Below, one piece after another: positions 23,150-32,961 of a stretch of DNA of 33,520 nt. Source of the DNA: an uncultured Gemmatimonadales bacterium (GTDB lineage: Bacteria > Gemmatimonadota > Gemmatimonadetes > Gemmatimonadales > GWC2-71-9); NCBI GenBank assembly GCA_963695555.1, contig CAVOGR010000013.1, forward strand, positions 1 through 33,520, read 5' to 3'. The notes beneath the pieces were generated by a model that did not search any database, was not told the DNA's origin, and saw only the letters and a list, made by a program, of their open reading frames with translations. The position numbers and the translations under genes are program-made. Position 1 is the stretch's first letter, and every line of letters starts with the position of its first letter.

Positions 23150-23923
23150 ATGATCGAGAACGCCTATTCCCGGTTGGCCCTTCTGGCCCTCATGGCCGGC
23201 CTGACCGCCTGCAGCAGCGAGCCGAATTCGAACCCGGTGGTGACGTTGAGCCTGGCGACCAAGGCGGCGAGCCCTGCGGTGGCCGCGGTGGCCCGGCCCT
23301 CGTTCGAGGTCTATACCCTGGGCGGGACCACCATCGACTTCACGTCCATTCAGGTGGCATTCAGCGAGATCGAGCTCGAGCGCGCCGGCTCGAGCGTCGA
23401 GTGCGACGTCGCCACCATCGACGACGACGACTGCGAGGAGATCGAGCTGTCGCCCCGGATCCTGGACCTTCCGCTCGGCCCCGGCGCCAGCCGGACGATC
23501 AGCGTGGCCGTGGCCCCCGGCACCTACGACGAGATCGAGTTCCGGGTGGAGAAGCTCGGTGACGAGTCCGACGAGGACGCCCTGGTCGCCGCGAACCCGG
23601 CGATGGACGGGGTCAGCATCCGGATCGTGGGCACCTACGACGACGGCAGCGGTCCCGTCGCGTTCGTGTTCACCACCGATCTTGATGTGGAGCAAGAGAT
23701 CGAGTTGGCCACACCGCTCACCGTCGATGCCACCGGCGCCGGCGACCTGACGCTCTACGTCGACATCGGCACCTGGTTCCTGAACCAGGCGGGCACCGCC
23801 TACGTCGATCCGGCCCAGGCCAATAAGGGCGGGCAGTTCGAGAGCGAGGTCAAGAACAACATTCAGCAGTCCTTCGACGCGTTCGAGGACGACGATCACG
23901 ACGGGCACAGCGACGACAGCTGA
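23150..23923 (+). CDS. Acidic lipoprotein of unknown function
   Basis: GGAG RBS then ATG 23150. Lipobox LTA-C. Beta-rich and Asp/Glu-rich. Cys pair in ECDVATIDDDDCEE. C-terminal DDDHDGHSDDS. Confidence 0.8.
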   Translation: MIENAYSRLALLALMAGLTACSSEPNSNPVVTLSLATKAASPAVAAVARPSFEVYTLGGTTIDFTSIQVAFSEIELERAGSSVECDVATIDDDDCEEIELSPRILDLPLGPGASRTISVAVAPGTYDEIEFRVEKLGDESDEDALVAANPAMDGVSIRIVGTYDDGSGPVAFVFTTDLDVEQEIELATPLTVDATGAGDLTLYVDIGTWFLNQAGTAYVDPAQANKGGQFESEVKNNIQQSFDAFEDDDHDGHSDDS

Positions 23924-23954
23924 CCGCCGCGAGCCTGAACACCACCTTAGGGGC

Positions 23955-23986
23955 CGACGCCCTCTTCCCACCGGGAGGGGGCGTCG
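23955..23986. terminator. GC-rich hairpin between convergent genes
   Basis: cgacgccctcttcc-cacc-gggagggggcgtcg forms a 14-bp stem with two G-U pairs. Confidence 0.6.
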
Positions 23987-24027
23987 TCGTAGGTCCCTGA
24001 CTCCGCAGCCGCCTTCGACCGTGCCAA

Positions 24028-24536
24028 TTACGCTCGTGCTTCCTTCGTTCGCCCCAACAACCGCGCATTGATTGCCACAATGACCGTAGAGAGCGACATG
24101 AGGACCGCACCCATCGCCGGTGAGAGGAGAACCCCGGCCCGATACAGCACGCCGGCTGCCAACGGGATCGCCACGACGTTGTAGCCGGTCGCCCACCAGA
24201 GATTCTGGACCATCTTGCCGTAGGTGGCGCGGGCCAGTGTGACGATGGCGAGGACGTCGCGCGGGTCGGAACGCACCAACACGATGTCGGCCGACTCGAT
24301 TGCGACGTCGGTTCCCGCCCCGATGGCAATGCCCACACCACCGAGGCCAGGACGAACTGCGCCAGACCTTGCCCCGGAAAGGCGAGCAGCTCCTGCAGGC
24401 CGAGCACGCTCTGGATGGCGGGGGCCAGGGCCAGCACCGGAACGGTCAGGACGAGGGTGATCCAGAGCCGGCGCCGGAAGTCGGCGACCATGTGGGCGTG
24501 GTGCGATTGATGACCGCCGTGATGTTCAGGCATCAT
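24028..24536 (-). pseudogene. Copper-translocating P1B-type ATPase (CopB-like) remnant with large internal deletion
   Basis: His-rich N-terminus plus TM1-TM2 ([14 protein letters not shown]...) is joined out of frame at about 24336 to the C-terminal [20 protein letters not shown]...[10 protein letters not shown]...MSLST. The A, P and N domains (DKTGT) are missing. Confidence 0.88.
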
Positions 24537-24627: not shown

Positions 24628-27600
24628 CTATTCCGCCGGCGTCAGAGCCAGGTCATCGTGCAACGCCCCCTTCACCAGGTTCTCCGGCTTGCGGGCAACC
24701 TGCCACCCGCGCCAGAGCAAGTAGATCGCCGGGATTACGACCAGCGTAAGCACGGTGGACGTCACCATCCCGCCCACCATCGGTGCGGCAATCCGCTTCA
24801 TGACGTCGGCTCCCGTGCCGTGGCTCCACATGATCGGCGCCAAGCCGGCGATGATCGCGATCACGGTCATGATCTTGGGCCGCAGGCGATCCACGGCCCC
24901 TTCCCGCACTGCGGCCGCGACGTCGAGTCGCGACCGCATCTGGCCTGCCGAGCTCCGACGATGAAACGCCTCGTCGAGATAGATCAACATGATCACACCG
25001 GTCTCGGCGGCCACACCGGCCAGCGCGATGAACCCGACCCACACCGCGACACTGGTGTTGTATCCCAGGAGCCACAGGAACCAGATACCGCCCACCAAGG
25101 AGAAGGGAAGCGCGAGCATGACGATCAACGACTCCGCCACGCCTCGGAAGTTGAGGTACAACAGGAGGAAGATGATCCCGAGTGTCACCGGAACCACGAT
25201 CTTCATCTTTTCGACCACCCGCTGCATGAACTCGTATTGGCCGCTCCAGAGGAGCGTGTAGCCCGTCGGCAGCGTCAGCTCTCGGGCCACCACTGCCTGC
25301 GCCTCGCGGACGTAGCCGCCCACGTCGCGCTCGCCGATGTCCACGAAGACCGTCGTGACCGGGAACGCATTCTCGGTCTTCACCGCCATCGGACCTTGGA
25401 CCACCTTCACGGTCGCCACTTGCCCCAGTGGGATCTGGGCACCTCCCATGGCGGGAATGACCACTCCCTTCAGTTTCTGGACATTGTCGCGCAGTTCGCG
25501 CGGATACCGGACGTTGACGGTGTAACGCTCCCGTCCTTCCACCGTGTAGGCCGCGTCGATCCCTCCCACCGTGGCCATGATCCCGTCGTGAATGTCGCCC
25601 ACGTTCAAGCCATAGCGCGCCGCCTCGGTCCGGTCGATATCGATATCGACGTAATACCCCGACACCCCCCGCTCGGCGAAGGCGCTCCGCGTACCCGGCA
25701 CCGCCTGAACCATCCGCTCCACCTGCTCGCCCAGCATCTGGAGCGTGTCCAGATTCGGCCCGAAGATCTTGATGCCGACCGGTGTCCGCACACCCGTGGC
25801 CAGCATGTCGATCCGGCCCTTGATGGGCATGGTCCAGGCGTTGGTGACGCCGGGCATCCGGACGGCCTGATCCATCTCGCCGATCAGACGTTCGTAGGTC
25901 ATGCCGGGGCGCCACTCGTGCTCGGGTCGCAGGGTGATGGTGGTCTCCGTCATATCGAGCGGGGCAGGGTCGGTCGCCGTCGAGGCCCGGCCCACCTTGC
26001 CCAACACGACGGCGACCTCCGGAAACGACGCCAGCACACTGTCCTGGTGGCGCATGATTTCCCGCGCCTGCGCGATGGAGACGCCCGGCACGGTGGTCGG
26101 CATGAACAAGATCGACCCCTCGTGGAGCGGGGGCATGAACTCGCTGCCCAGCCCGCGCCAGGGCACGACGGTCACCCCAAGGGCCACGGCCGCGCCCGCG
26201 ATCACCATCCACGGCCGGCGCACCACGAACTCGATGACCGGGCGGTAGACCCACCGAAGCCATCGATTGATCGGGTTCTTGGATTCGGGCCGGATCTTTC
26301 CAGTGATGAGATATCCCATGAGCACCGGCACCAGGGTGATCGACAGCAGCGCCGCCCCCGCCATGGCAAAGGTCTTGGTGAAGGCGAGCGGCTTGAACAG
26401 CCGACCCTCCTGCTGCTCCAGGACGAAGACCGGCAGAAAGCTGAACGTGATGATCAAGAGCGAGAAGAACAGCGGAGGGCCCACTTGCTTGGCGCTCGCG
26501 AGCACCAATTCCCAGTGGGGAATCCGCCCCTCGGCCCGCTCGATATGTTTGTGCATGTTCTCGATCATCACGATCGCGCCGTCGACCATGGCCCCGATGG
26601 CAATGGCGATGCCGCCCAAGCTCATGATGTTGGCGCTGACACCAATGGCCCGCATCACGATGAACGAGATCATGATGCCGAGCGGAAGGGTGATGATCGC
26701 GACGAGCGCGGAGCGGGCGTGGAGCAGAAACAGGACGGCAACAGCCGCCACGATGATCGACTCCTCCAGCAGTTTGTCCCGCAGGGTCGCGATGGCGTGA
26801 TGGATCAGGTCGCTCCGGTCGTAGGCCGTGCGGAGGCGCACTCCTCTAGGGAGTCCCTTTTCCACCTCGGCCAAGCGCCGCTTGACCGCTTCGATAGTCT
26901 TGAGCGCGTCGGATCCGAAGCGCATCACCACGATCCCGGCCACGACCTCTCCCTGGCCATTGAGATCGGCCGCCCCACGCCGCGGCGCCGGCCCCAGCTG
27001 GACGGAGGCGACATCGGCCACGCGAATGGGGGTTCCGTTTGGCGTGGCGCCGACGGTGACATTCTCGATGTCTTCGATGCCCTCGAGATAGCCCAGGCCG
27101 CGGATCATGTACTCGCGTCCGCCCATCTCCAGGACGCGAGCTCCGATGTCGATATTGTGCGCCCCGATCGCCTGGGTGACCCGGGTCACCGGAATATTGA
27201 ACGCGCGAAGACGTTCGGGCTGGACCTCCACCTGGTACTGCCGGACGAACCCGCCGAGGCTCGCGACCTCCGAGACGCCGGGCACCGCGGTGAGCTGGTA
27301 GCGGATGTACCAATCCTGGAGGGTTCTGAGCTCGGCCAAATCCAGGCTGTCCGATTCGAGCACATACTCGAACACCCAGCCGACCCCGGTGGCATCAGGC
27401 CCGAGCGAGGGCTCGACGCCGACCGGGAGCTGCTTCCGGATCCCGTTCAGGTACTCGAGGACCCGCGAGCGCGCCCAGTAGATGTCGGTACCGTCCTCGA
27501 AGATGACGTAGACCAGGCTCAAGCCGAAGAACGAATACCCGCGGACCACACGTGCACCCGGTACCTTCAGCATCTCCGTCGTGACCGGATAGGTGATCTG

Positions 27601-27789
27601 GTCCTCGACGATCTGCGGCGCCTGGTCTTCGAAGTCGGTTTGGATGATGACCTGGACGTCGGACAGGTCGGGAATCGCGTCCAATGGCGTGGTGCGGATG
27701 GCCCAGATGCCGGCGCCCACGACGGCGACCGTGGCCAGGAGCACGAGGCCACGATTGCGGAGCGACCACGCGATGATCGCATTAATCAT
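24628..27789 (-). CDS. cusA: CusA/SilA-type heavy-metal efflux RND permease
   Basis: ATG 27789 (MINAII...). LDAIPDLSDVQV, YWARSRVLEYL, LGPDATGVGW, NIMSLGGIAIAIG. Met-bearing motifs (FMPTT, PLDM.ET, WTMPIKGRIDML) as in Cu(I)/Ag(I) exporters. Confidence 0.95.
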   Translation of the reverse strand: MINAIIAWSLRNRGLVLLATVAVVGAGIWAIRTTPLDAIPDLSDVQVIIQTDFEDQAPQIVEDQITYPVTTEMLKVPGARVVRGYSFFGLSLVYVIFEDGTDIYWARSRVLEYLNGIRKQLPVGVEPSLGPDATGVGWVFEYVLESDSLDLAELRTLQDWYIRYQLTAVPGVSEVASLGGFVRQYQVEVQPERLRAFNIPVTRVTQAIGAHNIDIGARVLEMGGREYMIRGLGYLEGIEDIENVTVGATPNGTPIRVADVASVQLGPAPRRGAADLNGQGEVVAGIVVMRFGSDALKTIEAVKRRLAEVEKGLPRGVRLRTAYDRSDLIHHAIATLRDKLLEESIIVAAVAVLFLLHARSALVAIITLPLGIMISFIVMRAIGVSANIMSLGGIAIAIGAMVDGAIVMIENMHKHIERAEGRIPHWELVLASAKQVGPPLFFSLLIITFSFLPVFVLEQQEGRLFKPLAFTKTFAMAGAALLSITLVPVLMGYLITGKIRPESKNPINRWLRWVYRPVIEFVVRRPWMVIAGAAVALGVTVVPWRGLGSEFMPPLHEGSILFMPTTVPGVSIAQAREIMRHQDSVLASFPEVAVVLGKVGRASTATDPAPLDMTETTITLRPEHEWRPGMTYERLIGEMDQAVRMPGVTNAWTMPIKGRIDMLATGVRTPVGIKIFGPNLDTLQMLGEQVERMVQAVPGTRSAFAERGVSGYYVDIDIDRTEAARYGLNVGDIHDGIMATVGGIDAAYTVEGRERYTVNVRYPRELRDNVQKLKGVVIPAMGGAQIPLGQVATVKVVQGPMAVKTENAFPVTTVFVDIGERDVGGYVREAQAVVARELTLPTGYTLLWSGQYEFMQRVVEKMKIVVPVTLGIIFLLLYLNFRGVAESLIVMLALPFSLVGGIWFLWLLGYNTSVAVWVGFIALAGVAAETGVIMLIYLDEAFHRRSSAGQMRSRLDVAAAVREGAVDRLRPKIMTVIAIIAGLAPIMWSHGTGADVMKRIAAPMVGGMVTSTVLTLVVIPAIYLLWRGWQVARKPENLVKGALHDDLALTPAE

Positions 27790-29026
27790 GATCGTGTTCC
27801 TCTGCCGGCCGGGATGGGGCAGGGGCATCCGGTGCCACGTCGATCGCGCCGTGCTGCATTCCGGGCATGCTGCCGCCGGTCGACCCAAGCCTCGACTCCG
27901 CGTCGACCAGGAAATTGGCCGAGGCCACGATCTCCTCGCCCTTACTCAATCCAGCGAGGATCACGACCCGATCGCCGGCGCGGGCACCCAGGACGACATC
28001 GCGGGGGCCCAGCATCCCGGCCGTGTCCCGCACGAACACGAGATTCCGCTCGCCGGTGACGATCACGGCCTCCATGGGCACGGTGAGCAAATTGTCTCCC
28101 ACCGTGACGTCGAAGTAGATGGTGGCGAACATCCCGGGCTTGAGCCGAAGGTCCCGATTGCTGACGGTAACCCGTACCCGGTTGGTTCGGCTGGGCTGGT
28201 CGATAGTGGGATAGACGAAGCTCACCTTGCCCATCAGGTGCTCACCCGGATAGGCCGCCACCTCGATGTGGGCCTGTGCGCCAACGCGTACAAACTGGAT
28301 GTCCTGCTCGAAGAGGTCTCCTTCGACCCAGACGCTGGACAGATCGGCCATGCGGTAGAGCAGCATGCCAGGCATCACCTGCTGACCCTCGATGACGAGT
28401 TTCTCCAAGACGATTCCCGTCACAGGGGCAACCAGCGTGAGCGTCTTGGTGACCTCACCGGTCTCCTCGATGCGCGCGATCTGCTCCGCCGTGATATCCC
28501 AATACGCCAATCGGCGGCGCGCCGCTTCGAGCATGGCCCGGGCACTCCGCCACGCTTCGGGCGCGGTCGAATCGACCCGATCCGCCAGGCGCCGGGCGGT
28601 CAGCAGCTCCTCTTGCGCCGCAACCAGTTGCGGGCTGTACAAGGAGAGGACCGGCTGGCCCCGTCGCACGGATTCTCCGCTGCTTGCGACGAACAGCTGC
28701 TCGACGAAGCCTTCGATCTTGGGGGTAATGTTGGCGAGGTTGGGCTCCGGTGCCTTGACCTCGCCCACGGTTCGGATGGTCCGGGTGAGCGTTTCCGTCC
28801 GCGCGGTGGTGTACGCCACCCCGAGTGCCCGCTCTTGTTCTTTCGTGAGATGAACCGTTTGCCGCACCAGGGCGCCGGTCGTATCGATAGCGCCTTGGGT
28901 CCCTCCCGCCAGCATCTGGGCATGTTCTTCAGCGGTCATCTCCGGCATGGGCGATTCGTCGCCTTTGGTGCTGCACGAACTGACCGCCACCATGCCCCCG
29001 AGCACCACTATCCACGCGCGTCTCAT
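27782..29026 (-). CDS. cusB: CusB-type RND periplasmic adaptor (membrane fusion protein)
   Basis: YSPQLVAAQEE, ADLSSVWV, LKPGMFA, FLVDAES. Met/His-rich termini (MPEMTAEEHAQM; SMPGMQH; EEHDHD). Confidence 0.92.
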   Translation of the reverse strand: MRRAWIVVLGGMVAVSSCSTKGDESPMPEMTAEEHAQMLAGGTQGAIDTTGALVRQTVHLTKEQERALGVAYTTARTETLTRTIRTVGEVKAPEPNLANITPKIEGFVEQLFVASSGESVRRGQPVLSLYSPQLVAAQEELLTARRLADRVDSTAPEAWRSARAMLEAARRRLAYWDITAEQIARIEETGEVTKTLTLVAPVTGIVLEKLVIEGQQVMPGMLLYRMADLSSVWVEGDLFEQDIQFVRVGAQAHIEVAAYPGEHLMGKVSFVYPTIDQPSRTNRVRVTVSNRDLRLKPGMFATIYFDVTVGDNLLTVPMEAVIVTGERNLVFVRDTAGMLGPRDVVLGARAGDRVVILAGLSKGEEIVASANFLVDAESRLGSTGGSMPGMQHGAIDVAPDAPAPSRPAEEHDHD

Positions 29027-30300
29027 TGGGCACCTCCGAGTTCAACGCCCATCAAGGCTTCCATCCCGGCGATCGCCTGGTGGAACTTGGCCACCAGGCG
29101 AATGGACTCGATAGCATATCGATTCACGGTCATTTCACTCTCCACCAGAGTCATGTAGTCCACGTCGCCCACCCGGTACGCCGAGAGGGCCGACTCCACC
29201 GAGGCGCGGGCCTGCGGCACGATGGACGTCGCGTAGAGTTGGGACAGGCGCCGGGATCGGTCGGCATCCGCGCGCTGCTCGGCCAGTTGCGCGAATGTCT
29301 CGTTGTAGAGATCCAGCGCCATCGCTTCCTGGCTGGCCCGCATCGCCTCCATTTCGCGGCGGAGCGGCAGCTGCCGCGAGCCGGCGAAGAGCGGGATACT
29401 CACCCCCACCATGAACGTGGTCATGTCATCGAATTGCGGCCGCTCGCCGTACGCCACCCCGACCATGATGTCCGGGTACAGGTCCCGTCGGGCACGGCGG
29501 TACCCGGCATCAGCCGCCATCACCCGGGCTTGGGCTGCCGCCAGCGCGGGCCGGCTCACAGCGGCCATGGCCATGAGGGAATCCACGCCGGGCACCTCAC
29601 GCTCTGGGCCCGGGAGTTCGAGCCCGCCCACCGGGTCCGTCGCGCCGCGCCCGAGAAGGGCGTTGAGCCTGGCACTCATGGCCAGCCGCTCCTGTTCCAT
29701 CACGGTGATGTCTTCAGACATGGAGGCAACCGCGACTTGGGCCTGCAGTACGTCTTGCTGCCGGCCGGCGCCGACGGCGTACATCGTGGACGAGATGCGC
29801 AGGAAATCCCTGAGCAATTCCCGTGTGTCGTTCATGATGACGAGGGCGCGGTCCATGTAGGCCAGCTGGTAGTACACCGACTTGAGGCGGGCCACGAGGG
29901 CGACTTCGGCTTCGACCGCGTCCAACCGTTCGGCCTCGGCCAGGTGCTGCTCTCGTTCCTTGGCAAACCCCAGCTTGCCGGGCCAGGGCACCATTTGGGT
30001 GAGCTGCACCTGGTTCATGGTCATGGGTTCGCTGGTCCCGAAATCACCGAGCGGCCGGTTCATGAGAGCGAAGGACAGCCCTGGATCCGGCAGGGTGCCA
30101 GCCGGACGGATCCGTTCCTGGGCAGCATCGGCGCTCAGCCTCGCGGCATGCAGAGCCGGATTGCCGGCACGGGCAATTGCGAGTGCGACAGCCAGTGTCA
30201 GCGTGTCAGGTGGAGCGAGCCCTGCCTGCGCCCGCGAAGAGCCCGGCGCCAGTAGAGCGCCAAGGACGACCGCACCTGCGGCCGCGTAGTTGATGGACAT
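29023..30300 (-). CDS. TolC-family outer membrane efflux protein (CusC-equivalent)
   Basis: Signal peptide, NP.L.AA, LPDP, Q..PWPGK, SIPLF, Y..G..D motifs. Coupled to cusB by an ATGA overlap. Confidence 0.9.
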   Translation of the reverse strand: MSINYAAAGAVVLGALLAPGSSRAQAGLAPPDTLTLAVALAIARAGNPALHAARLSADAAQERIRPAGTLPDPGLSFALMNRPLGDFGTSEPMTMNQVQLTQMVPWPGKLGFAKEREQHLAEAERLDAVEAEVALVARLKSVYYQLAYMDRALVIMNDTRELLRDFLRISSTMYAVGAGRQQDVLQAQVAVASMSEDITVMEQERLAMSARLNALLGRGATDPVGGLELPGPEREVPGVDSLMAMAAVSRPALAAAQARVMAADAGYRRARRDLYPDIMVGVAYGERPQFDDMTTFMVGVSIPLFAGSRQLPLRREMEAMRASQEAMALDLYNETFAQLAEQRADADRSRRLSQLYATSIVPQARASVESALSAYRVGDVDYMTLVESEMTVNRYAIESIRLVAKFHQAIAGMEALMGVELGGAQ

Positions 30301-30306
30301 GATCGA

Positions 30307-30354
30307 GCCTCTTAGTCGAAGTAACTGCCGATCCTACGAATGCGACTAAGCGGC
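30307..30354 (-). promoter_or_regulatory. Stem-loop sequestering the Shine-Dalgarno of the TolC gene
   Basis: The mRNA reads UAG-GCCgCUUAGUCG...CGACUAAGaGGC-UCGAUC-AUG. The 3' arm contains AAGAGG, 7 nt upstream of the AUG at 30300. Confidence 0.75.
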
Positions 30355-30746
30355 CTACTCTGGAGGAGGTGTGGGAGGCGGTAGAGTGGTTGAGACCAAC
30401 TCCTCATGCCGAGGGCATGGAGGAGCGGTATAGGTAGGGACGGCGATGAGGAGCACCAGCGCGCGGGGCACGTCTGAGGCGATGTGAGGCGAACATACGG
30501 CGCTCAGCCGGACAGTGCTGCTGCAGGGCACTCGGGGCACTCTTCCGCATCGGCATGGAGCGTGCCGGCCAACACCGGTGCCGCCGAGAGGACGGCCGAC
30601 GGCGCCGCGAGCACGCCGGCCTCGTGGGAACACGAGACGTTGCCGTTCGCCTCCGTCGGGACCAGGAGGAGCACCAAGAGGGCAGCGAGTACCGTCACGC
30701 CGACCGGAACCTTGGCCTCAACTCGTTCCCACCACATGCCATGCAT
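30355..30746 (-). CDS. CutF/CruR (DUF2946)-like upstream leader ORF, interrupted by one apparent frameshift near 30505-30527
   Basis: Frame 1 gives MHGMWW...VLAALLVLLLVPTEANG (signal-like)...HADAEECPECP. Frame 2 continues ...SAVCSPH...LPPPTPPPE-stop. Joined length is about 130 aa. Confidence 0.6.
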
Positions 30747-30758
30747 GTGGGAAATATA
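30732..30758 (-). promoter_or_regulatory. Putative -10 box (TATATT) 6 nt before the leader ATG, with an 8-3-8 palindrome over the start
   Basis: Minus strand reads TATATT(30758-30753)-tcccac-ATG(30746). ccacatgc-cat-gcatgtgg lies at 30732-30750. Confidence 0.5.
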
Positions 30759-30801
30759 CCGAGGCGGGTGGCGTATCCCTACATGAGGTACCGGGATTAA
30801 G

Positions 30802-30830
30802 CATGAAGATTTCTTCATGAAGGCTTCCTG
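30802..30830. promoter_or_regulatory. Candidate regulator binding site between the divergent cus and feo units
   Basis: Perfect 8-2-8 palindrome CATGAAGA-TT-TCTTCATG (30802-30819), plus the 11-bp-period repeat CTTCATG/CTTCCTG (30813/30824). Confidence 0.55.
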
Positions 30831-30953
30831 GTGTAATTTCACCTGTCCGGCGTCATTTAGGGCTACGGATGAAGCGAACGGCTCACTTCACTAGGTTTAC
30901 CGCCGAGGCCCGATGCCAGAAACCACACCCCGTGCCGGAGCCGCCCAGGCCCC

Positions 30954-32961
30954 ATGAAGTCCAAGACGCCAAGCTGCCATTCCACGGGCCTGCCTGAAGA
31001 GGAAGCCTCGCCGCCCGAGGCGGGGGAGGGTGCCCGCGCGGCTACCATCCTGGTTGGCAACCCGAACGTCGGCAAGAGCGTCCTCTTCAAGAACCTGACC
31101 CATCGCTACGTCACGGTCTCCAATTTCCCAGGCACGACGGTCGAGATGTTTCGCGCCCGGGCCAGTTTCAACGGCCGGGACGTCGAGGTCATCGACACCC
31201 CGGGCATCAACGACCTCACGCCCTCGAGCGAGGATGCGCGGGTCACCCGGGCGCTGCTCGAGCCAGCACGCGATCGCGACCCTGGTCCAGGTGGCCGACG
31301 CCAAGAACCTGCGGCGCGCCCTGCTGCTGACGCTCGCAGCTGGCCGAGCTCGGCCGCCCGATGGTGCTGGTGCTCAACATGGTCGGACGAGCTGGAGGAG
31401 CGCGGCGGCATGATCGACACCGACCGCCTGAGCGACATTCTCGGCGTGCCGGTCGTCACCACCGTGGCCATCCGGAACGAAGGCACCGATCGACTGATCG
31501 AGGCGCTGGCCCAGGCACGCCCGCCGCGGCTGGATGGTCCGCCGCTGCCCGAGGCCCGACGAACGACTACGGAGGCAACACGCCAGCGAGTGGCCCGAGC
31601 CAACGAGATCCTCGCCGAGACCTACTCCATTTCCCAGCCGGCCAATCCGTCGCTCCGGGTGCGGCTCGGCTTCTGGGCCATGCACCCGGTCCAGGGGCTG
31701 GCGTTCATGGCGGTGGTGACGCTCGCGGTGTTCTGGTTCGTCGGGCTGTTCGGGGCCGGGACCCTGGTGGACGTGCTCGAGGTCGGCGTGTTCGAGCAGC
31801 GGCTGAGCCCGCTGGCCATCCGCGTCGTCGACGCGGTCCTGCCGTTCCCCCACGTCCACGAGACGGGGCTGATCTCCCACGCGCTTGCGCCTGCCACTCA
31901 CGCCGGCCCACGAGGTCGGAGTCGCCACGCTGTCCAAGACCACTGATCACTACCGGCCTACTCCCTGAGTCCCGGCACGCAGCCCTGAGCACCGTCGCAG
32001 TCCGTCCTGCGGTTCCTGCACGACTTCCTCGTCGGACCGTACGGCGCCATCACCATGGCGCTGAGCTACGCGCTCGCCATCGTGCTGCCGATCGTCACGA
32101 CGTTCTTCCTCGTCTTCAGCATCCTGGAGGACTCCGGCTACTTGCCCGCGCATGGCGATCATGGTCAACCGGGTCGTTCCGCGTCATGGGGCTCAACGGC
32201 AAGGCGGTGCTGCCGATGATCCTCGGCCTCGGCTGCGACACCATGGCCACGATGACCACCCGGATCCTCGAGACCCGCAAGGAGCGCATCGTCACCACCC
32301 TGCTGCTGGCGCTCGCGGTGCCCTGCTCGGCCCAGCTCGGCGTGCTGCTGGCGATGATGGCGACGCTCTCGCCCGCCGCGGTGCCTTGGTCTGGCTGGGC
32401 ATCATGGTGGGCGTGATCTTCATGGTGGGCTGGCTCACGGCGCGGGTCTTCGGCGGCGAGGCCAGCGACTTCATCCTGGAGATCCCGCCGATGCGGCGGC
32501 CGCAGCTGGCCAACGTGCTGGTCAAGACCGCGGGCCGGCTCAAGTGGTATCTCCGGGAGGTCATCCCGCTGTTCGTGCTCGGCACCGCGGTCCTGTTCCT
32601 GCTCGACAAGCTCGCACCTGCTCGGGTTGATCTGGCCCGGCTCGGCGAGCCGCTGGTGACCGGCTGGCTCGGGCTGCCGAAGGAGATGGCCAACGCCTTT
32701 CTCATCGGCTTCATGCGCCGGGACTTCGGCGCGGTCTACCTGCTCGACGCGGCCACCGGGCCCGACCCGGTGCTCGAACGCCGTCCAGATCCTGGTGGCG
32801 ATGGTCACGATCACGCTGTTCATGCCGTGCATCGCCAACTTCCTGATGATCGCCAAGGAGCACGGCATGAAGGTCGCCTCGGCATGGCGGCCTTCATCTT
32901 CCCGTTCGCCTTCCTGGTGGGCGGGCTCGTACACTTCGCGGCGATATGGCTGTTTACCTGA
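30954..32961 (+). pseudogene. feoB: Ferrous iron transporter FeoB, broken by many single-base indels (probably sequencing error rather than true decay)
   Basis: G1 GNPNVGKS, G2 NFPGTTVE, G3 DTPG, G4 NMxDE, LEDSGYLPR, GLNGKAVLPMILGLGC, VPCSAQ, FILEIPP, TLFMPCIA, spread over several frames. Confidence 0.9.

Follow-up and report, generated by a model that had tools for sequence, protein, structure and literature searches.

The window analysed in this study is a 33,520-nucleotide (nt) stretch of a genome (G000) of the phylum Gemmatimonadota. In this window, an open reading frame (ORF) at 30746-30355 precedes an efflux operon, tolC-cusB-cusA; all coordinates below are on the minus strand unless stated otherwise. 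The ORF is probably a cis-acting arrest leader of the CutF type, i.e., an exported nascent chain that serves as a sensor for the operon. The gene is conserved, its motifs and their spacing are fixed, the partner (anti-SD) of the next gene's Shine-Dalgarno sequence (SD) is positioned with respect to the Pro codons of the leader, and the pump is of the CusA type. The original prediction for this DNA had proposed an exported Cys-containing ORF, a polyproline stall and the unmasking of the SD. This core idea was supported by the conserved gene, the invariant motifs, the spacing of 47-50 amino acids (aa) between them, and the position of the anti-SD in 21 of 27 loci.

In the proposed mechanism, the N-terminal signal would direct co-translational export of the leader peptide. 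About 48 residues separate the Cys cluster (HC, CPxCPxxxC, C) from the later PPTPPP motif, and the cluster would be periplasmic by the time the ribosome reaches that motif. Bound Cu(I) or Ag(I) would prolong a polyproline or termination pause. The paused ribosome would then cover or unwind the 6-15 nt that follow the final Pro codon, i.e., the partner of the SD, and the freed SD would permit translation of the outer-membrane component of the pump. Without metal, the ribosome would depart, the helix would reform and the SD would be masked. Export, metal binding, stalling and this direction of regulation are what we infer for the leader, as is its sensing of copper.

The leader gene and its family

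The leader of the window is split into two parts. The first part (frame A, 30504-30746) carries VLAALLVLLLVPTEANG from the ATG at 30746 and ends at a premature TGA (30506-30504). Its N-terminus is composed of basic residues, a hydrophobic stretch of 16 residues (VGVTVLAALLVLLLVP) and then TEANG. An export signal was predicted at approximately residues 1-35, and it is followed by Cys39-x-His and a CPEC motif at 30539-30528. In the family alignment, AxG or ASA precedes the first Cys of the leader proteins, the signal being predicted from composition. The second part (frame B, 30355-30510) contains SAVCSP, a variable spacer and LPPPTPPPE (30384-30358, with PPTPPP at 30378-30361), and it ends with a TAG stop at 30357-30355. 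The start codon, the signal-like stretch, the CPEC motif and the LPPPTPPPE-stop end named in the original prediction were all recovered.

Three genomes of the same genus, i.e., G002, G004 and G001, encode the leader intact in a single frame of 129-132 aa. The first part of the window's leader showed 79-82% identity to the orthologues of G002 and G004, and the second part showed 82-90%; the two parts form one open frame in both genomes. Over the last 63 codons, the ratio of nonsynonymous to synonymous differences (pN/pS) was 0.34-0.40, and pS between G002 and G001 was 0.70. Judged from these sequence comparisons, the upstream ORF is a real, conserved gene under purifying selection.

Homologs of the leader were searched at several levels. 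A word-index protein search returned six proteins, and those with names were hypothetical proteins of metagenome-assembled genomes of Gemmatimonadales. A profile search of 1.8 billion representatives gave seven matches at E <=1e-3, of which four (P0009, P0010, P0012 and P0013) were distant full-length relatives. A 1642-aa protein among these matches was disregarded, as it was aligned over 28 residues only. By six-frame profile search, the leader gene was found in 29 of 401 genomes of the phylum. All 29 belong to the Gemmatimonadales family of the window (28/166 genomes when its own genome is excluded), and none of the 234 genomes of other families had the gene. Except for one member cut by a contig end, all other leaders of the family were intact.

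In the alignment of 33 members, C39, C73, C76, C81, C87, P130 and P131 are invariant, and P77, P126, P127, T128 and P129 are shared by at least 90% of the members. The family therefore has five invariant Cys in the pattern HC, CPxCPxxxC, C. The PPTPPP motif is the most conserved element of the leader and lies 1-8 residues from the C-terminal end. Its codons vary synonymously, with all four Pro codons used at most positions; therefore, it is the peptide that is conserved and not the RNA. The spacing from CxxC to the Pro motif was 47-50 aa in all 23 loci listed, with at most 1-2 gap columns in between. This stretch of approximately 48 residues between CPxC and PPTPPP is fixed in length and unconserved in sequence, and it therefore suits a ruler rather than a fold. 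The AlphaFold2 (AF2) model made with the family alignment showed helices only at residues 6-12 and 15-28 and an unstructured mature part, at low confidence (predicted local distance difference test score 62.9). In Pfam and NCBIfam searches with the two halves of the window's leader and the three intact orthologues, nothing meaningful was matched.

The original prediction had also noticed that the two halves are out of frame. The DNA alignment with G002, G004 and G001 assigned this to two single-base insertions in the zone 30506-30524, i.e., one extra base at about 30524 and another at about 30506, each of which changes the frame. In the stretch between them, the correct frame gives QHCP. If the insertions are real, the switch is dead in this window: translation would end at 30506-30504, about 150 nt before the hairpin described below, and the pump would be permanently masked or otherwise expressed. 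Such a decayed pseudogene is compatible with every reading of the family, and it is considered possible but doubtful. Two independent insertions lie 18 nt apart, neither of them in a long homopolymer, and the neighbouring feoB occupies three frames here and is intact in the relatives. The near-identical DNA runs X1-X3 leave 30474-30636 uncovered. These points speak for decay, and the double frameshift is itself an argument against a working leader at this locus.

The codons of frame B past the break, on the other hand, are still 82-90% identical to the relatives at the protein level, and the other family members are intact apart from the one cut by a contig end. The indels are clustered in about 1.7 kb at the contig end, whereas tolC, cusB, cusA and 20-odd other genes of the window are intact. 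A 669-nt contig from an estuary metatranscriptome run (X13), approximately 90% identical, is without both extra bases. The completeness of 87% in only 14 contigs of the genome and an elongation factor P (EF-P) match within a 66-aa frame also point to assembly indels. The two extra bases are thus regarded as assembly errors with some preference over real loss. Because of these bases, gene callers miss or split the leader of this window, which matters for annotation.

The X13 contig spans 30173-30842, i.e., the leader, the hairpin and the start of tolC, with zero differences at 30254-30381; it comes from an RNA library and cannot prove transcription. In a scan of 30200-31050, no site resembling a sigma-70 promoter was found.

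Proposed masking of the Shine-Dalgarno sequence

A hairpin begins at the first base after the leader stop. Its 5' arm, GCCGCUUAGUCG (30343-30354), carries the anti-SD, which occupies +10 to +13 when counted from the first base of the final Pro codon. Its 3' arm, CGACUAAGAGGC (30307-30318), holds the SD of the TolC-like gene, AAGAGG (30313-30308), which lies 7 nt before the ATG at 30300. The arms are 12 nt each and 24 nt apart, and 11 of 12 positions are paired (92%), as had been expected for a hairpin with the SD in its 3' arm. Both arms are identical in the window, G002, G004 and G001, while the loop and the flanking codons diverge. In G001, they are unchanged despite a synonymous divergence of 0.70 in the adjoining coding sequence. 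In the loop (30319-30342), a core of UUCG-N-AGGAUCG is kept in the four genus members and its flanks vary. The AGGA of this core resembles an SD and could be a standby site.

The SD pairing was then compared over the family in 27 folded loci, i.e., 25 from the phylum search together with those of G004 and G001, which represent about 16 lineages by our grouping. Three loci were dropped from the fold statistics: L034, in which the leader is cut off by the end of the contig, and two loci with an unclear downstream start, L036 and L041. In minimum free energy folds, nearly every locus pairs the last codons or the stop of the leader with the SD of the next gene. The arm sequences differ between lineages, yet they stay complementary. 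The probability that the SD pairs within 18 nt on either side of the leader stop was 0.77 against 0.34 in shuffles in the -30/+18 context, and 0.64 against 0.18 in the -120/+30 context. As background, 300 SD-bearing ORF starts of the window's own genome gave 0.23 and 0.12 in these contexts. Only 17% and 8% of the background starts reached a probability of at least 0.6, in comparison with 24/27 and 18/27 family loci. A cruder duplex scan with 24-nt windows over the 240 nt upstream gave the SD region its best partner at the leader end, between -24 and +6 of the stop, in 15 of 26 loci; for the other 11, the best partner lay elsewhere. L028, which had no SD match, was left out.

The position of the anti-SD follows the Pro motif. 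In 21/27 loci, its distance from the first base of the last Pro codon is +6 to +15 nt, while the coding tails after this motif vary from 1 to 8 codons. Since the placement is steady over such different tails, it is the Pro motif, rather than the stop, that serves as the anchor. For the Pro-anchored window, the pairing probability was 0.63 versus 0.06 in shuffles, and it was at least 0.5 in 18/27 loci. The observed value was reached by at most 5 of 100 shuffles in 20/27 loci. A ribosome held on the last Pro codon or the stop codon would cover this stretch, according to the established footprint and helicase distances.

Several results weigh against this reading. The hairpin of the window by itself is not significant: it folds at -18.9 kcal/mol in 61 nt (z -1.71), and 12 of 200 shuffles do equally well. 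In contexts of 81-126 nt its z was -0.02 to -0.49, i.e., no better than shuffles. A competing partner of the 5' arm, ACUACGCGGCC, lies inside tolC at 30280-30290 (codons 4-7). The rival helix between 30355-30345 and 30290-30280 (11 nt, 91% paired) wins in folds of 121 nt and longer, where AAGAG of the SD falls into an internal loop. G002, which is identical to the window from the Pro codons to the tolC ATG, stands in for it in the folding. Its probability of pairing between the SD and the leader end was 0.75 and 0.64 in local contexts, but owing to the rival helix it fell to 0.02 in the -120/+30 context, where G004 gave 0.05. Over the family, the overall pairedness of the SD (0.83-0.86) is barely above that of shuffles (0.79), and six of the 27 loci (L032, L037, L038, L039, L042 and L054) are without the +6 to +15 placement. 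The scoring window of +6 to +16 was picked after the placement had been seen, the 27 loci are related and hence not independent, and the downstream starts and SD motifs were assigned by rule. Finally, when 22 intergenic stretches were aligned with MAFFT, the row of L005 being cut a few bases off, RNAalifold returned an empty consensus. Column-wise covariation could not be scored because registers and loop lengths differ between lineages. Of what had been suggested for orthologous upstream regions, the ORF with a signal, CxxC and polyproline tail is conserved and the SD pairing recurs, whereas a covarying consensus hairpin did not emerge.

The rival helix is conserved in G002 and G004 and not in G001, where the pairing of the SD with the leader end was 0.75, 0.75 and 0.74 in the three contexts. 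It could be a third state of a switch, or chance. According to the folding predictions, the hairpin of the window's genus is context-dependent. It is lifted above chance because of the comparative evidence, i.e., the identity of the arms and the SD pairing over the family.

A chance origin of the masking was also considered. In GC-rich DNA, folding predicts a paired SD in almost all cases, and the CCN codons of Pro are a natural anti-SD. The pairedness of 0.79 even in shuffles, the window hairpin at z -0.02 to -1.7, and the loci L038 and L042, where the SD pairs with the Pro codons themselves, agree with this explanation. However, the usual partner is not the CCN-rich motif but the stretch 6-15 nt past the last Pro codon, for which shuffles gave 0.06 against 0.63, and the genome background was 0.12-0.23. 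The arms are invariant at a pS of 0.70, and complementarity is kept while arm sequences vary between lineages. Chance is therefore regarded as highly improbable, and SD masking tied to the Pro motif is preferred.

The pump operon and other cargo genes

The leader is followed after 54 nt by three genes of a resistance-nodulation-division (RND) efflux system. A TolC/CusC-like outer-membrane efflux protein of 425 aa was predicted at 29023-30300 (Pfam OEP, E 2e-34), and the TolC and NodT subfamilies of NCBIfam matched it below their cut-offs. The CusB-like periplasmic adaptor, 414 aa, was located at 27782-29026 (Pfam HlyD_D23, E 7e-75; NCBIfam RND_mfp over its cut-off). The third gene, at 24628-27792, encodes a heavy-metal RND pump of 1054 aa, which scored 1163 bits with TIGR00914 (CusA/CzcA) at a cut-off of 701. 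Among solved structures, the chains of Escherichia coli CusA were the best matches (1141 bits), in comparison with 571 bits to ZneA. Met is kept in the pump at all three positions aligned to the metal triad of CusA, which we take to be M573, M623 and M672. By homology, the pump is of the CusA type and the operon is assigned to the CusCBA systems. The genes tolC and cusB overlap at 29026-29023, and the operon has no cusF-like gene. The absence of a regulator such as cusRS, cueR or csoR, noted in the original prediction, agrees with the Pfam scan, in which no regulator domain was found among 33 ORFs of the window.

TolC/OEP was found after the leader in only seven genomes, i.e., that of the window, G002, G004, G001, G356, G003 and G076. 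In other genomes, two kinds of cargo were found. The first is a secreted protein of approximately 260 aa that starts with Q-x-DYRNLD (e.g., L033:652-1440:-; loci within L028-L053), and the Atlas clusters nearest to it are Phenol_MetA_deg-like outer-membrane transporters. A protein of approximately 216 aa with FNWQF...FDYGHAILYE often comes next. The second is a secreted His/Met-rich protein of approximately 470 aa (e.g., L030:1909-3339:+). The cargo proteins other than TolC had no match in Pfam or NCBIfam. The gaps between leader and cargo are 32-95 nt in the family. Since the leader is portable ahead of different cargo, a cis-regulatory role was argued for it. The unannotated outer-membrane cargo in the relatives are likely candidates for metal-responsive proteins.

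An alternative explanation is plain translational coupling together with a stable Cu/Ag-binding protein, secreted or anchored in the periplasm, such as a stand-in for CusF, with no stalling or sensing. The only role of the helix would then be to tie synthesis of TolC to translation of the leader. No cusF-like gene lies between tolC and cusB, the five invariant Cys and the His-rich stretches suit a metal binder, and any ribosome at the stop would open a helix that overlaps it. A binder alone, however, accounts poorly for several features: the 48-aa segment from the Cys to PPTPPP is fixed in length and unconserved, as in a ruler, and the mature part has no fold in the AF2 prediction. No element is more conserved than PPTPPP, the anti-SD follows the Pro codons over tails of 1-8 codons and not the stop, and the same leader gene precedes unrelated cargo. 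This explanation is thus considered unlikely, and the leader is preferably read as an arrest peptide.

Comparison with known leader peptides

CutF and CruR have been described as members of DUF2946, in which an export signal is combined with a Cys motif and, 45 residues further on, a Pro motif at the C-terminus (PMC9973294; PMC9426467; 10.1101/2025.02.05.636593). In the CutF model, a stall prolonged by Cu lets the ribosome melt a stem-loop that hides the SD (PMC9973294; 10.1101/2025.02.05.636593). The leader was compared with CutF by its published description and by design rules. The mature CutF protein has reportedly not been detected. With CutF of Rhodobacter capsulatus (cutFOG; Ozturk et al. 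2021, 2023 and a 2025 preprint), the leader shares a small ORF with a Sec-type signal at the head of the operon, a Cys motif approximately 45-50 residues before a C-terminal PPP motif, and a short intergenic stem-loop that hides the SD of the next gene. In agreement with the rule set for CutF-like genes, the leader has 129-132 aa, PPTPPP near its end, an N-terminus like an export signal and a 54-nt gap to tolC. An SD-hiding helix within reach of a ribosome on the Pro motif was also found, although that of the window loses in long folds. The cargo of CutF is a multicopper oxidase, whereas here it is a CusA-type RND pump. The CutF motif is CxxxC, whereas the leader has CPxCPxxxC and two further Cys. 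Unlike CutF, the leader has PPTPPP as its arrest motif and belongs to the phylum Gemmatimonadota, and in most members of its family the anti-SD lies inside the coding tail.

The original prediction had likened the leader to CutF and CruR as DUF2946 proteins, and this likeness stood for the design but not for the family membership. With PF11162 (gathering score 23.7 bits), none of the three intact genus orthologues matched at E up to 10, the halves from the window did not match, and one of 33 family members matched at E 2.5e-4. The window's own genome had no DUF2946 match over the cut-off. By hhalign, the 33-sequence family was aligned to 13 DUF2946 sequences of the phylum over 20 signal-peptide columns only (probability 72.6%). 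These results count against the CutF-type reading. Of the DUF2946 traits, the CXXC (C73 and C76, both invariant) and the spacing are present, and the C-terminal RAPP is absent. Because of the PF11162 mismatch and the alignment limited to the signal peptide, the family is regarded as CutF-like by design but not as a member of DUF2946. In an Atlas feature search, DUF6660 (0.95) and a cluster of which 22% is DUF2946 (0.94) were among the nearest named clusters, which is a lead only.

Canonical DUF2946 genes, with CxxC and SRAPP 3-7 residues from the end, were detected in 22 of 301 genomes of the phylum at E <=1e-3, nine of them over the cut-off. Their loci (L057-L076) are mostly outside the family of the window, so that the phylum has two distinct leader types, one with RAPP and one with PPTPPP; G058 and G191 match both.

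CruR of Bordetella pertussis (PF11162; Roy et al. 2022) shares with the leader an upstream ORF with an export signal, CXXC and a C-terminal arrest motif containing Pro, and it also heads copper-related operons (PMC9426467). The spacing between its motifs, 45 aa, is conserved within 1-2 residues, whereas that of the leader is 47-50, i.e., 2-5 longer. CruR has RAPP where the leader has PPTPPP; it works through Rho termination across a gap of 162 nt, and Cu represses it. The leader might work with the logic of CruR, i.e., arrest by default that keeps the operon transcribed and translated until metal relieves it, followed by Rho termination or re-masking, so that copper would repress the downstream genes. 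The parts list of the two, with the export signal, CXXC, the C-terminal Pro motif and a 45-aa spacing in CruR (PMC9426467), is shared, and the Phenol_MetA_deg-like barrels in relatives could be uptake channels that would sensibly be repressed by metal. A CusA-type exporter, by contrast, is expected to be induced by Cu and not repressed. Intergenic gaps of 54 nt here and of 32-95 nt across the family contrast with 162 nt in cruR, the leader family has no RAPP motif, and an SD-masking helix fits the CutF design (PMC9973294). Repression of this kind is considered very unlikely, and the CutF-type leader that unmasks the SD is retained.

Other systems are similar in part. CusD, SilD and CzcI are CutF-like genes (list D) upstream of genes of the cusC/czcC/silC type, and they share with the leader a small exported ORF with a Cys/His motif directly upstream of an RND outer-membrane gene; CzcI is without the Pro motif, unlike the leader (PMC9973294). 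SecM, VemP and MifM are also exported nascent chains whose C-terminal arrest holds the ribosome over an SD-masking stem-loop (PMC9973294). They sense export capacity and not metal, have other arrest motifs, and are not sequence relatives.

It had been stated that no characterised case was known for a CusCBA pump or for this phylum. This was too strong, as the RND outer-membrane efflux protein (OEP) is the most frequent downstream neighbour of CutF-like genes by bioinformatic analysis only (PMC9973294). CutF-like genes ahead of RND outer-membrane genes are thus already published, and the leader adds a variant to them. The part of the statement that held concerns bench tests, of which none was found for such a leader on an RND pump in the literature searched. 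The term Gemmatimonad had no occurrence in the main text and three text supplements of PMC9973294, the large table File S1 being outside this coverage. No publication that links CutF-type leaders to Gemmatimonadota was found in the literature searched, and the matches listed were from microbial ecology or unrelated, as judged by titles and the starts of abstracts.

Bench evidence that a nascent exported peptide senses metal post-transcriptionally exists for only two genes, cutF and cruR, both of Proteobacteria. The leader family offers a clean comparative case in another phylum with a different arrest motif and Cys pattern. The distance from the Pro codons to the anti-SD is a measurable rule that lends support to the stall-and-unmask model and can be tested directly. 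Tentatively, and with clear reservation, the family may be a lineage-restricted one of exported Cys-rich PPTPPP arrest peptides, maybe independent of CutF and CruR. It would then be a portable copper leader for TolC-CusBA, Phenol_MetA_deg-like barrels and 470-aa His/Met-rich proteins, with a fixed distance of 6-15 nt to the anti-SD. If true, this distance would be a design rule at the sequence level for finding stall-unmasking leaders without homology.

Neighbouring genes

The feoB gene on the plus strand (30954-32961) is split into three overlapping frames, i.e., FeoB_N at 30954-31943, Gate at 31361-32416 and FeoB_C at 32152-32961. In G002, G004 and G001, a single open frame of at least 422-430 aa encodes it. 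All indels seen in the window, those of the leader and of feoB, fall in approximately 1.7 kb near the contig end. Elsewhere in the genome, the EF-P domain match in the 66-aa open frame is located at G000:C4:122905-123033, which hints that frameshifts reach beyond the window.

Downstream of cusA, two short overlapping frames were found at 23850-24536, one of which combines a membrane-like segment with an N-terminus rich in His. The frame at 24028-24336, with no Pfam match at E 1e-5, may resemble the C-terminus of a P-type ATPase. What is left of a copper ATPase, or else a further gene with frameshifts, may lie here.

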